64,000 nt of DNA from a virus (lineage: Duplodnaviria > Heunggongvirae > Uroviricota > Caudoviricetes). The DNA lies in the IMG/VR virus record IMGVR_UViG_3300031992_002114, positions 1 to 64,000 of that record; one strand, 5' to 3'. Position 1 is the first letter of the stretch; each line of letters opens with the position of its first letter. A program made the translations under genes and the position numbers. Below the pieces are notes generated by a model. That model was given only the letters and a program-made list of their open reading frames with translations, had not been told where the DNA came from and did no database searches. Of the stretch, positions 43,068 through 46,879 are shown piece by piece.

Positions 43068-45347
43068 TTGGATAGTGGTACAACATTTATTAGTAAAGCT
43101 GGATTACAACGTTTTTATGCTAGAATTTATGAAGTCTTTGCTAATAAAAATCATACCCATGTTGGTACTAATATAGATGCAGCTACTACAACTGTTCGTG
43201 GTACTGTTCAACCAGATGGGACTACAATTGATGTTACTGCTGCTGGTGTAATTAGTGCTAAGACCGCTACAGGAAGTGCTAAAGGTATCGTACAACCAGA
43301 TGGTACTTCTATTAATATTAATAATGGAACAATTAGTGTTCCTGATGCTAGTACAAGTCAAAAAGGACTTTTATCTTCTAGTGATAAAACTAAGTTAAAT
43401 GGAGTTGCAACAGGAGCTACTAAAACAGAAGTTACTAATGCTACTACTTTAACTATTACTGATAGTGCGGGAAGTACATCTACTTTTTCTGGTATGACCG
43501 CGGCTGAAAGAAGTAAATTATCTGGGATTGCGGACAATGCTAATAATTATAGTTTACCCACAGCTTCATCAGATACTCTTGGTGGAATTAAAGTTGGTAA
43601 TCATCTTTCAATTATAAATGGTGTTTTAACAATTGCTGATACTGTAGCATTAGTTTCTGCTTTATCTAATTATGTTACAACAACTACTTTTAATAATTTT
43701 AAAACAGATGATTATGATGTTTTTAAATTAGCTCGTGAAACTAATTTTGGTGAAGATATTGGAGATGGACTTGCTGTTTCTCCTTCAAAGAAATTAGTAA
43801 TTGATACTAACTTTCTTGGAGATTATATTTCAGAGCAGTTTACTCCAGGCGTTGTAGTTCCTACTTATAATAGTAAAACAGGACAATATACAGGAATTCC
43901 AGAATGGTTAGCTAGTACACTTGAGGAAGATGAACATAAAGATGAAATTTATACAACTCGTATTCCTAAATGAGATACTAGCCATGATGTAGTCTGTGTT
44001 AAAACTGATGATAATGCTGGTCTTAGTGTAACACCTTCAACAGAAACTTATGCGGGAGCTGATGATTATAAAAACTTACCAGCTTTTAAAACTTGGGAGG
44101 TTAATGGTGGTTATAGTGGAACTGGCATTCCATATGTAACAGCATTTAAAGGTCGTGACTCTTGGTTTAGTAGAACTGGTGAAAATGGAGATGTCTGGAT
44201 TATGACCCGTGTACTTTGGTATAAGTGGGAAGAAGATGAAGACTATCAATATATTTCTATTTCTGCTAGTCCACAAACAGGATTTATTCCTGAACCTGGT
44301 GCTGTATTAGCAAATGGACAGCTAAGACCATTTATTCTTAGAGCTAAATATCCTATTGGAACTTACAATGGAAAGATTGCTTCTGTCTCTGGTGTTATGA
44401 CTAGAGTAAGAGATATTTCTTATAATACTTTAATTACTTTAACAGCAGCTAAAGGTGCGGCTTATGGTAGTTTATCAGTCGATGACTTATGGTATTTTAA
44501 GACAATGATTCTTATTAAATATGCAACGAAATCTTCACAAACAGCCTTCCCCGGATGTACAAATCATTATTTAACTTATTATCCAGTTATCGCCGAGACA
44601 AATGTAACTCACGTTACTTTATCTGCTGCTAATGCTGCAAATATTCCTGTAGGAAGTACAATTTGTATAGGTACTTCTGACAGAGGTGGACAGATTATTA
44701 ATAATGCAAAAGTAATTTCTAAAGAAACTACAGCAGATGGCGTTGCATTAAATCTTAATACTACAACACCTTTTAGCACATTAACGACACATAGAGTAGA
44801 TACTTTACCTTGGTACTGCGGTTCTTGCGATGAGGTACTTGGTAATGATGGTTCACCTACTGGTGATATGAATGGTAAAGAGCCATTTATTCTTCAAGGT
44901 ATTGAATATATGGTTGGTGCTTGGGAAATTTCAACTGATATTATGTTTAATTGAATTGATGGTGAAGGACATATATTAGTTGGCAAAGACCGTTCTACTA
45001 AAGTTTCTGGTAATTCAACAGGATTTGTTGATACTGGACTTAAAGTAGGACAAGGTTCAAATGATGGATGGGTATATCCAACAGATTTTACTCATCTAGA
45101 TGGATTAATTATTACGACCAATACGGGTGCAAGTCAAACTACTGGTGTAGGAGATGGTAATTACACTTATAAGACTGGTACAACTCAAACAGGACTACGC
45201 GAGTTTCTGGCCTTCGGTGGCCTCCACTATGGTGGTGCTGCGGGTGCTTCGTGCTTCGCCTCGGATAGCGTGCTTTCGGTCACGGGGTGGGACATTGGCG
45301 GGCGCCTTTCTGGAACAGATACTTATGGTACTTGGTCTAATAGTTAA
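43068..45347 (+). CDS. tail fibre / receptor-binding protein, DGR target with C-terminal variable region
   Basis: ORFs 43068..43973 and 44202..44954 plus C-terminus joined in one frame by TGA; fibre-like repeats; GC-rich C-terminus containing the VR. Confidence 0.7.
45202..45305 (+). repeat. DGR variable repeat (VR) at 3' end of tail-fibre gene
   Basis: ~104-nt near-copy of 45494-45597; every mismatch (~20) falls where the other copy has A. Confidence 0.8.
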
Positions 45348-45493
45348 TTTTTAGTAATATAGGTTTAGACATTTTTAAAAGAAGGGATTTGTAACGAAAA
45401 TTGTTCTGAAGCCCTTGCTTATGTTTCTAAACTGTATTTACTTTTCCTTTGGCGGGCGCTCCTTGGCGGGCGCTCGTGAGGTATAAAAAGTGC

Positions 45494-45597
45494 GGTTTCA
45501 GGCCTTCGGTAACCTCAACAATGGTGGTAATGCAGGTGCTTCATGCTTCAACTCGAATAACGAGCTTTCGAACACGAGGTGGAACAATGGCGGGCGC
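45494..45597 (+). repeat. DGR template repeat (TR)
   Basis: Carries A at all positions where VR differs; flanked by GGCGGGCGC (45449, 45465, 45589). Confidence 0.8.
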
Positions 45598-45799
45598 TCA
45601 TATTGATATTCTAAGTTTTTTATATATTACTTTTAGTAATATTAAATATACTTGCGTTACATCTAGACTACATACTTTGCAAAAAGTCGTGATAGTCCAT
45701 ATGCCTGGCTCTTTTGAGTGAAATGTTATATTCAGAAAATTGGGTTAGTAGCCTATATGGTAGAAAATTCAATTTAGAATATCAATAAGAAAGTGAAAA

Positions 45800-46879
45800 A
45801 TGAAGTCATATTTAAAACATTTTACAATTACTCGTGATTTTATTGAGTATGCTTATGAGAAATGACTTAAAGCAGAAGCGGGTCATAAAAATGAATGACG
45901 AGTTCAAAAAGAATATGATTCTAAAGATGCTCTTATTGACGAGATATATACGGAGATTAAAAATCGAACAGTTACTCTTAGACCTATTCATAGATATAAT
46001 CATTTAGAAGAAACTAATGGTAAAATTAGAGTACTTGGGGTTGAGTCTGTAAAACAACAAATACTTGATTATATTGTAGTTTTAGCTTTAGATGAATTTT
46101 TAAATAAAAGAATAGGTTATTGACAAATTTCTGGAATTAAAAATAGAGGAGCTGTTAGATATTTAAGGAAAGTTCAAGGATGAACTAGAAATTGTAAATA
46201 TCATGTTCATGTAGATATTAAACAATTTTATCCTTCTACTTCTAAATCTCTAGTCTACAAGGTTTTATTAAAATATATTAAAAATGAAGAAATCCTATAT
46301 ATAGCAAAATTATTGCTTAACTCTTATAATTTTGGTTTAGAGTTAGGAAGTTATTTTAGTTTATGTATGGCAAATTTAGTTGTAAGTTTTTGTTATCATG
46401 AGCTAGAAGAAAAAAAGAATTTAAAACATCAAGTTTGGTATATGGATGATGGTTATTTATTTGGAGATGATCCAGAAGAATTAACTGCCCTTGTTAATGA
46501 ATTAAGCACTTATCTTTTCCAAAATTTTCATCTAGAACTTAAAGCTTGAAAAATATGTTTAAATAAACGTACATATCGTAGTCGTACTGTTAAACATTCA
46601 ATTTTTAAAGGAGAGCCAGTAGATTTAGCTGGTTATCGAATTACTCCCACTTGTATCACTTTAAGAAAAAATCTTTTTAGAAGATTGTTACGTTCTTATC
46701 GAAGATTTTTAAAAAAAGGTGGAGAACGTCTTGCAAGAAGATGTTGCAGTTATTGGGGATATTTAAAATATACTGATAGTTTAGGAGTACGACGACGTTA
46801 TAATTTAGATAGAATAATGAAACAATGTAGCGCATTAATATCAGCCTTAGATAAAAGGAGGGCCAATGAGAAACAATAA
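45800..46879 (+). CDS. DGR reverse transcriptase
   Basis: RT motifs VDIKQFYPS, LGSYFS.CMANLV, YMDDGYLFG; TGA-containing; sits downstream of the TR/VR pair. Confidence 0.8.

Follow-up and report, generated by a model that had tools for sequence, protein, structure and literature searches.

A question raised by a locus in the genome of a tailed phage (Caudoviricetes) is whether a diversity-generating retroelement (DGR) can rewrite a tail fibre with a target gene, a template and a reverse transcriptase (RT) alone, in the absence of the accessory protein Avd. The locus lies in a stretch of 64,000 nucleotides, positions 1 to 64,000 of the IMG/VR record IMGVR_UViG_3300031992_002114 (hereafter the window). 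A variable repeat (VR) at the 3' end of a fibre-like gene is followed there by a template repeat (TR) and an RT gene. The evidence presented below makes it very likely that this is a complete, currently active and accessory-free (target-TR-RT) DGR that rewrites a fibre tip with a C-type-lectin (CLec) fold. The element is a bona fide DGR, with all the testable defining features of this class but the terminal Q of the RT motif.

Comparison of the two repeats revealed an ungapped 103-nt match at an offset of 292 nt between the VR (45203-45305, plus strand, approximately codons 712-746 of the target) and the TR (45495-45597, plus strand). The original prediction, made from the sequence alone, had placed the repeats at 45202-45305 and 45494-45597 (about 104 nt) with a spacing of 190 nt. 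Both the repeat and its arrangement are correct, but the copies start one base later, the extra column being an A/G mismatch that does not fall on a TR adenine, and the exact gap is 189 nt. The claim that the roughly 20 mismatches were all placed at TR adenines was borne out by the tabulated pairwise alignment, in which 19 of 19 mismatches show A in the TR (11 A>G, 5 A>T and 3 A>C); as the TR contains 26 adenines, the chance of such a distribution is 2.7e-15. When the TR is read in the frame of the target gene, 24 of these 26 adenines occupy codon positions 1 or 2 and 10 AAY codons appear. Enumeration of all the adenine substitutions gave 14 variable codons and 1.1e14 protein variants, with no reachable stop codon.

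A closer inspection of the 3' ends showed that VR and TR terminate alike in the GC-rich GGCGGGCGC, followed by CTTTCTGG in the VR and by TCATATTG in the TR. The sequence CTTTCTGG is kept after the GC element in the VRs of relatives. The end of the VR (45297-45313, plus strand), composed of the GC-only GGCGGGCGC common to the TR and then the VR-specific CTTTCTGG, has the features of a putative initiation of mutagenic homing (IMH)-like element, that is, a shared GC-rich 3' stretch and diverging sequence beyond it. Among 59 relatives, the fixed non-adenine differences between TR and VR cluster within 2-3 nt after this element, and 2-3 nt upstream of a helix of the flanking RNA (P2, see below), which marks the 3' limit of the information copied into the VR. 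The designation of GGCGGGCGC as IMH-like in the original prediction can be kept for the copies at the ends of VR and TR; the two additional copies upstream of the TR belong to a lineage-specific insertion and are not an IMH.

Several closely related genomes shed light on the recent history of the element. Two IMG/VR loci, L001 (98.3% identical to the window over 11 kb) and L002 (about 94%), carry TRs that differ from that of the window by 2-3 nt and VRs that differ by 16-22 nt, nearly all of the VR differences being placed in TR-adenine columns. In the case of L001, 16 differences are found in the 103 nt of the VR and 48 in the remaining 2177 nt of the target gene. The non-adenine changes of these TRs (C>T at position 9 and GG>AC at positions 83/84) reappear in the VR of the same phage, demonstrating a flow of information from TR to VR. 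An even closer relative, the ENA contig L122 (148,461 bp), shows 12 differences in 22,280 nt with respect to window positions 33068-55347 (99.95% identical); nine of these 12 single-nucleotide polymorphisms (SNPs) are inside the VR, and all nine at TR-adenine positions. The variation at population level that had been proposed as a check is present among public assembled alleles, since 12 full-length target sequences contain 11 distinct VRs, with a mean of 5.9 residues per position at the 14 predicted variable codons versus 1.19 at the other 745. The target allele of a 148,493-bp IMG contig (P0237) is identical to that of the window. Taken from four independent genome comparisons, these sequences indicate that the element is recently or currently active.

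The target gene (43068-45347, plus strand) encodes a variable protein of 759 residues, with a TTG start codon after AAGGAG and two in-frame TGA codons read as Trp. Its N-terminal region of about 260 residues contains fibre-type repeats, matches weakly the phi29 head-fibre family and is poorly modelled, while residues 260-759 were predicted by AlphaFold2 with a local distance difference test score (pLDDT) above 90. The model was made from P0053, a 99%-identical sequence with no difference outside the VR. The structure prediction agrees with the CLec-like C-terminus anticipated for this fibre: a Foldseek search with the model retrieved TaqVP (E 2.5e-7), the DGR variable protein of Thermus aquaticus (PDB 5VF4), which shares 17% sequence identity with the target. 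TaqVP is a cellular protein and not a phage fibre, and it lacks the extra N-terminal fibre-repeat region of about 260 residues. According to the model, the VR at the 3' end of the gene would place the variable residues on display on the CLec fold of the C-terminus. In the relatives, a homologous target of about 520 residues is preceded by BppU_N baseplate genes and followed by genes for XkdX-like, holin and endolysin proteins, and the label tail fibre/receptor-binding protein is reasonable but unproven. A second fibre-like gene (48155-51847, plus strand) encodes 1230 residues with a collagen-like G-X-Y stretch and eight in-frame TGA codons; it contains many 'S..DK.KLD.I' repeats, as in the N-terminus of the DGR target, and no copy of the TR resembling a VR was noticed there.

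The RT gene (45800-46879, plus strand; 359 residues) was confirmed as an open reading frame (ORF) that uses recoded TGA, as had been described; it has five in-frame TGA codons (Trp) and contains the motifs WYMDDGY and LGSYFSL (motif 4). The protein matches Pfam RVT_1 and phrog_1423. A comparison with solved structures gave the bRT of Bordetella phage as best match (8ub7, E 1.8e-15), with the group II intron RT GsI-IIC next (E 0.05); even so, the identity to bRT is about 27% over palm and thumb. The absence of DGR-clade features, which would have spoken against the prediction, was not observed, and the nearest solved and annotated relatives of the enzyme point to the DGR RT clade. A group II intron RT/maturase or a retron RT was considered and rejected, as the scores with the curated NCBIfam models are far under their cut-offs (TIGR04416, 47.7 bits with a cut-off of 300; retron St85, 28.4 bits with a cut-off of 235). 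Rfam detected neither an intron nor a retron RNA, with no match in the DGR region at the gathering threshold or at E<=0.05. No phage relative in GenBank exceeds 31% identity; the annotated matches include the DGR phage BPP-1 and its relatives, and further ones, annotated merely as reverse transcriptases, come from ANMV-1, Faecalibacterium phage FP_Epona, Butyrivibrio phages and the crAss-like phages cr55_1 and cr52_1.

The RT family comprises at least 138 loci in IMG/VR and, among GTDB genomes, is found mostly in prophages of Collinsella and other Coriobacteriales. The same layout was observed in 64 of the 71 loci with enough upstream sequence: a VR at the 3' end of the target with adenine-specific mismatches, about 100-200 nt of non-coding sequence, a TR of about 100-113 nt, a spacer of about 150-200 nt and the RT, with no room for avd. 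The Collinsella/Coriobacteriales prophages and gut siphophage contigs of about 30-40 kb (IMG/VR) have RTs 36-47% and targets 37-47% identical to those of the window, and share with it the order VR-TR-RT-orfX-XkdX-holin-lysin (orfX is described below), the GSYFSL motif and the RNA helices P1, P2, Pb, Pc and Pd. They are GC-rich, use the standard code, carry two covarying GC hairpins after the target stop codon and have GGGATT 28-35 nt upstream of the TR. The window element, in contrast, is AT-rich (about 30% GC) and TGA-recoded, belongs to a phage of about 148 kb with 25 tRNAs, and has a 20-bp P2 and a 98-nt insertion with two copies of GGCGGGCGCTC. The gene order corresponds to 'Architecture A1' (target-TR-RT, with no avd, HRDC, MSL or CH1) of Wu et al. 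2018 (PMC5758913). In that work the accessory-free 'architecture A' represents 29% of the curated DGR set and an Avd-independent variant of retrohoming was proposed for it, while the conserved flanking RNA of the present lineage is not described there. The later survey of BPP-1 RNA was limited to 278 DGRs having Avd.

This flanking RNA was defined from an alignment of 15 non-redundant relatives, with the window left out, that begins shortly upstream of the TR and reaches the start codon of the RT. Six helices were seen. P1 pairs a 7-nt strand placed after the conserved GGGATT with another located 25-50 nt beyond the TR, showing compensatory changes at 7 of 7 pairs and 98% of cells paired. P2 joins TCTGG plus one base, at the end of the TR region, to CCAGA at the extreme end of the spacer (2 of 6 pairs covary). 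Between the 3' strands of P1 and P2 are the hairpins Pb, Pc and Pd and the single-stranded UGAAAU and GUAGC. Considering all the helices, 97.3% of cells are paired versus 37-43% when the partners are slid 1-3 columns, compensatory changes affect 16 pairs, as opposed to 1-2 in the controls, and such values were not attained in any of 500 shuffles.

All these components could be located in the window on the plus strand. The GGGATT motif (45384-45389) is followed by the 5' strand of P1 (45390-45396, TGTAACG), a perfect complement of the 3' strand (45655-45661, CGTTACA), and the GACTAC motif at 45666-45671 corresponds to the conserved CUACC of the relatives. A long-range duplex between the region upstream of the TR and the spacer, of the type termed 'cPRT Stop' in BPP-1, is thus present. 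P2 is enlarged to 20 nt: its 5' strand (45598-45617) begins one base after the end of the TR/VR homology (C45597) and forms with 45771-45790 an inverted repeat that is 90% complementary, with 19 of 20 positions paired, which closes the minimum free energy fold of the spacer (z = -4.05). The 3' domain of the spacer (45700-45795) comprises Pb (CTC-TTTT-GAG, followed by TGAAAT), Pc (TTGGGTT with AATTCAA, followed by AGTAGCC), Pd (GCC-TATAT-GGT) and the 3' strand of P2. A covariance model of the 3' half of the spacer, built from 14 relatives only, found a single match in the whole window, precisely at 45700-45795 (24.5 bits, E 2.9e-4, full length). In L002 a compensatory double change converts GCC/GGT of Pd into GCT/AGT, and within the window's own lineage the non-coding cassette is about 98% identical versus 94% for the flanks. 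The lineage-specific insertion (45397-45494, 98 nt, plus strand) lies between P1 and the TR and increases the distance from GGGATT to the TR to 111 nt. It contains TTGGCGGGCGCTC in tandem (45449-45461 and 45463-45475), each copy holding the GGCGGGCGCTC/GGCGGGCGC GC element with the junction to the spacer of the TR type and not of the VR type, and it is kept in L001 and L002.

No terminator and no sigma-70-like promoter on the plus strand were found between VR and RT, so that the TR and its flanking RNA are most likely co-transcribed with the fibre gene by read-through. The RT would then copy the TR into complementary DNA (cDNA), misincorporating opposite adenines, and the cDNA would replace the VR up to the shared GC-rich GGCGGGCGC, with 14 codons being rewritten. 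In the cryo-electron microscopy structure of BPP-1 two adjacent duplexes are seen, one between the TR 3' end and the spacer that contains the priming adenosine and the other, the 'cPRT Stop', between the region upstream of the TR and the spacer. By analogy, P1 may act as the stop or positioning duplex and P2 as a template:primer duplex by which C45597 would be brought to the active site as the first template base; A45790, the last paired base of P2 at the end of its 3' strand, may be the cis-primer. An alternative primer strand just upstream of the 3' strand of P1, which would keep the BPP-1 order, was discarded as its CCAG is found in only four closely related loci and is not conserved.

The window element shares with BPP-1 (mtd-avd-TR-brt) the adenine-specific transfer from TR to VR into the CLec-fold tip at the C-terminus of a receptor-binding fibre, the shared GC-rich VR/TR element as 3' limit of the transfer, and both types of duplex, one upstream-of-TR/spacer and one involving the TR 3' end. 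Unlike BPP-1, it has no Avd and no hairpin downstream of the VR, its genes read TGA as Trp, and the TR 3' end has its partner in the 3'-terminal part of the spacer, beyond the P1 strand. The segment between TR and P1, where BPP-1 has the Avd-binding stem-loop, is short and unconserved in the relatives, which fits the absence of Avd. A tentative explanation, one possibility among others, is that the RT works alone with a rewired RNA, as a cis-primed mutagenic enzyme for which P1 is kept, P2 is formed with the 3' end of the spacer in a crossed, pseudoknot-like manner, no Avd stem-loop is needed, and a 20-bp AT-rich P2 is placed at the end of the TR/VR homology.

Some observations weigh against a complete and active accessory-free element. 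The strand order in the window is P1a-P2a-P1b-P2b, so that the helices cross, whereas the order in BPP-1 is nested, and the priming role proposed for P2 derives from its position alone. The GC hairpins found after the target gene of the relatives and of BPP-1 are missing, and no hairpin or cruciform is predicted downstream of the VR (DNA fold z = +1.0). The RT motif terminates in SL (LGSYFSL) and not in SQ as in bRT (IGSLTSQ), (I/V/L)GxxxSQ being the signature motif of DGR RTs (PMC3521204, PMC7826257). The core (I/V/L)Gxxx of domain 4 is kept as L-G-S-Y-F, aligned to I181-G182 of bRT, and among 26 members of the RT family G183, S184 and L188 are invariant and S187 nearly so. The SQ dipeptide, kept in about 90% of DGR RTs, is not strictly required, as SP, SH, NQ, PA, AQ and VQ variants occur in 15 of 155 functional-looking DGRs (PMC3521204), and bRT Q187P retains adenine mutagenesis (PMC7826257); the SL ending is therefore a variant and no ground for exclusion. 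Finally, the activity was read from assembled consensus genomes. Together with the missing SQ and hairpin, this last point would favour an inactive relic, in which the A-biased differences were left by past activity of an RT that no longer works. Such a relic is already strongly disfavoured, and very improbable in our estimation: it does not account for two genomes 99.95% identical with 9 of 12 SNPs at TR-A positions of the VR, nor for 11 VR alleles in 12 sequences, and both the intact RT ORF, with YMDD and every family-invariant residue present, and the strong purifying selection on TR and spacer argue against it.

The lack of Avd admits two other explanations. As had been noted, no avd gene lies within the element, the gaps between VR and TR (189 nt) and between TR and RT (202 nt) being too short for such an ORF, and none of 39 small ORFs of the window matched the Avd family when scanned with Pfam. 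An Avd-like protein could be encoded elsewhere in the genome of about 148 kb, of which the window covers 43%, and bRT is inactive without Avd (bioRxiv 10.1101/2023.10.23.563531). Supply in trans seems nevertheless quite unlikely: apart from the negative scan of the small ORFs, the genes tabulated for the 22-kb region of L122 and for the relatives L003, L005 and L006 include no Avd Pfam family, the compact layout recurs in prophages of 30-40 kb, profile searching in published work (PMC5758913) detected no avd genes located far from Avd-less DGRs, and the segment corresponding to the Avd stem-loop of BPP-1 is neither long nor conserved in the relatives. The other candidate is orfX (46866-47219, plus strand), which encodes an acidic protein of 117 residues (isoelectric point (pI) 4.2) with three in-frame TGA codons, its start overlapping the RT stop by 14 nt. 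Its role as a new accessory factor, standing in for Avd in the lineage, was suggested by an acidic homologue (113-124 residues, pI 4.1-4.6) located after the RT stop, or overlapping it, in nearly all of about 60 loci, by the RT ending at the orfX start in 35 of 35 IMG/VR loci found via orfX and in 4 of 4 distant homologues, and by the acidic accessory gene CH1 known in other Avd-less DGRs (PMC5758913). This role is nonetheless unlikely. Although 41 of 41 orfX loci adjoin an RT, the search from the target side demoted the candidate, as it retrieved, besides 43 loci with RT and orfX, 15 DGRs of a more distant lineage with RT and no orfX, four loci with neither and two (L224 and L257) in which orfX comes straight after the fibre gene with no TR or RT. 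The accessory-free reading is preferred, and the RT appears to work without Avd.

The protein encoded by orfX has no match in Pfam or PDB and no PHROG function; it resembles neither XkdW nor Avd in sequence or fold, being acidic and not a helical bundle. Its presence after the fibre gene without an RT, and its absence from the 15 related DGRs, indicate that it travels with the fibre/XkdX module, of which it is most likely a part; it probably does not belong to the DGR itself. Between the fibre gene and orfX, the TR-RT unit represents an insertion. In the DGR-less modules (L224, positions 1794-4426, and L257, positions 441-2071) a fibre homologue with a VR-like, diversified-looking C-terminus is followed by orfX and an XkdX-like gene, orfX starting in L224 21 nt after the fibre stop; this suggests either that the TR-RT unit was lost or that a DGR acts in trans.

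A further feature of the GC-rich relatives (L003, L005, L006 and 12 others) is a conserved GGGGTGAA-[covarying GC hairpin]-GAGGGG-loop-CCCC arrangement directly after the target gene, before GGGATT, missing from the window, which could be a terminator of the target gene or a post-IMH hairpin/cruciform like that of BPP-1.

The genes of the region can be read sensibly only with TGA as a sense codon. The TGA codons of the RT are located at invariant or predominant Trp columns of the alignment of 26 homologues (W22 and W250 invariant), and those of orfX likewise at Trp columns (W27 and W74 invariant), which shows that TGA encodes Trp. The recoding is gene-specific. Many long genes at 23-42 kb have no in-frame TGA, whereas the RT and the structural genes have 2-8 each, a distribution that resembles the early/late split of stop-codon-recoded phages; TGA-free long ORFs, such as 27727-30138 and 39797-41581, occupy 23.7-41.6 kb, and TGA-bearing ones 0.9-8.5 kb and 43-52 kb. 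DGRs have been reported in stop-codon-recoded crAss-like phages (PMC12386605). The window contains 25 tRNA genes, one with the anticodon UCA. This only UCA tRNA (54115-54210, plus strand; 96 nt) has a variable arm of about 24 nt, the discriminator G73 and an encoded CCA, and was called tRNA-SeC by ARAGORN; a normal tRNA-Trp(CCA) is located at 57800-57873. Despite the tRNA-SeC call for this type-II-like tRNA, every in-frame TGA checked is placed at a conserved Trp column.

Tail-fibre DGRs are well established, the Avd-less architecture is documented and DGRs in recoded phages have been reported. What goes beyond the literature consulted is the RNA scaffold extended to the whole lineage, a possibly rewired priming topology and very clean evidence of ongoing diversification. 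As the differences between nearly identical genomes are almost confined to the TR-adenine positions of the VR, the evolution of host range can be traced in public metagenomes. The lineage is populous, compact and Avd-free, and bears on the question raised in the literature of how Avd-less DGRs work. Its cassette of about 1.5 kb, with a conserved RNA scaffold and P2 at the template boundary, represents a minimal RT-plus-RNA system that is possibly useful for engineered targeted mutagenesis. Moreover, gene callers that use the standard code split a gene such as this RT, with its five in-frame TGA codons, and DGR surveys can thereby miss elements of recoded phages.

Other features were seen in the surroundings of the element. 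Just after XkdX, a GC-rich (45%) segment (47488-47934, plus strand) encodes a 128-residue protein with an N-terminal membrane helix (phrog_4105/4257), possibly holin-like, and L002 shows a non-homologous replacement over approximately 47354-47686. GC-rich islands (45-49% GC versus about 30% for the genome) are found at 12973-13386, 17643-18032 and 24648-25046 on the plus strand and at 18771-19169 on the minus strand. Three of them encode clear paralogues of about 130 residues (MA.K.NVTR...GFPVDN.GRPS.HKATAIL...) with no in-frame TGA, the minus-strand island seeming more distantly similar; neither their products nor their sequences gave a significant match in Pfam or Rfam, the latter searched with the thresholds used for the DGR region. 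According to the gene table of L122, the region upstream of the fibre module encodes a TROVE (Ro60-like) protein (38013-39464), a sortase-domain protein (34648-35451) and a NUDIX hydrolase (32454-33074). The tRNA arrays (25 genes, 53.0-60.7 kb) are interspersed with HNH endonuclease genes (53280-53801 and 54689-55339) and include a full-length ROOL RNA (58141-58788, plus strand; Rfam RF03087, 297.6 bits), and the TROVE protein deserves attention given the proximity of this RNA and of the tRNA arrays.

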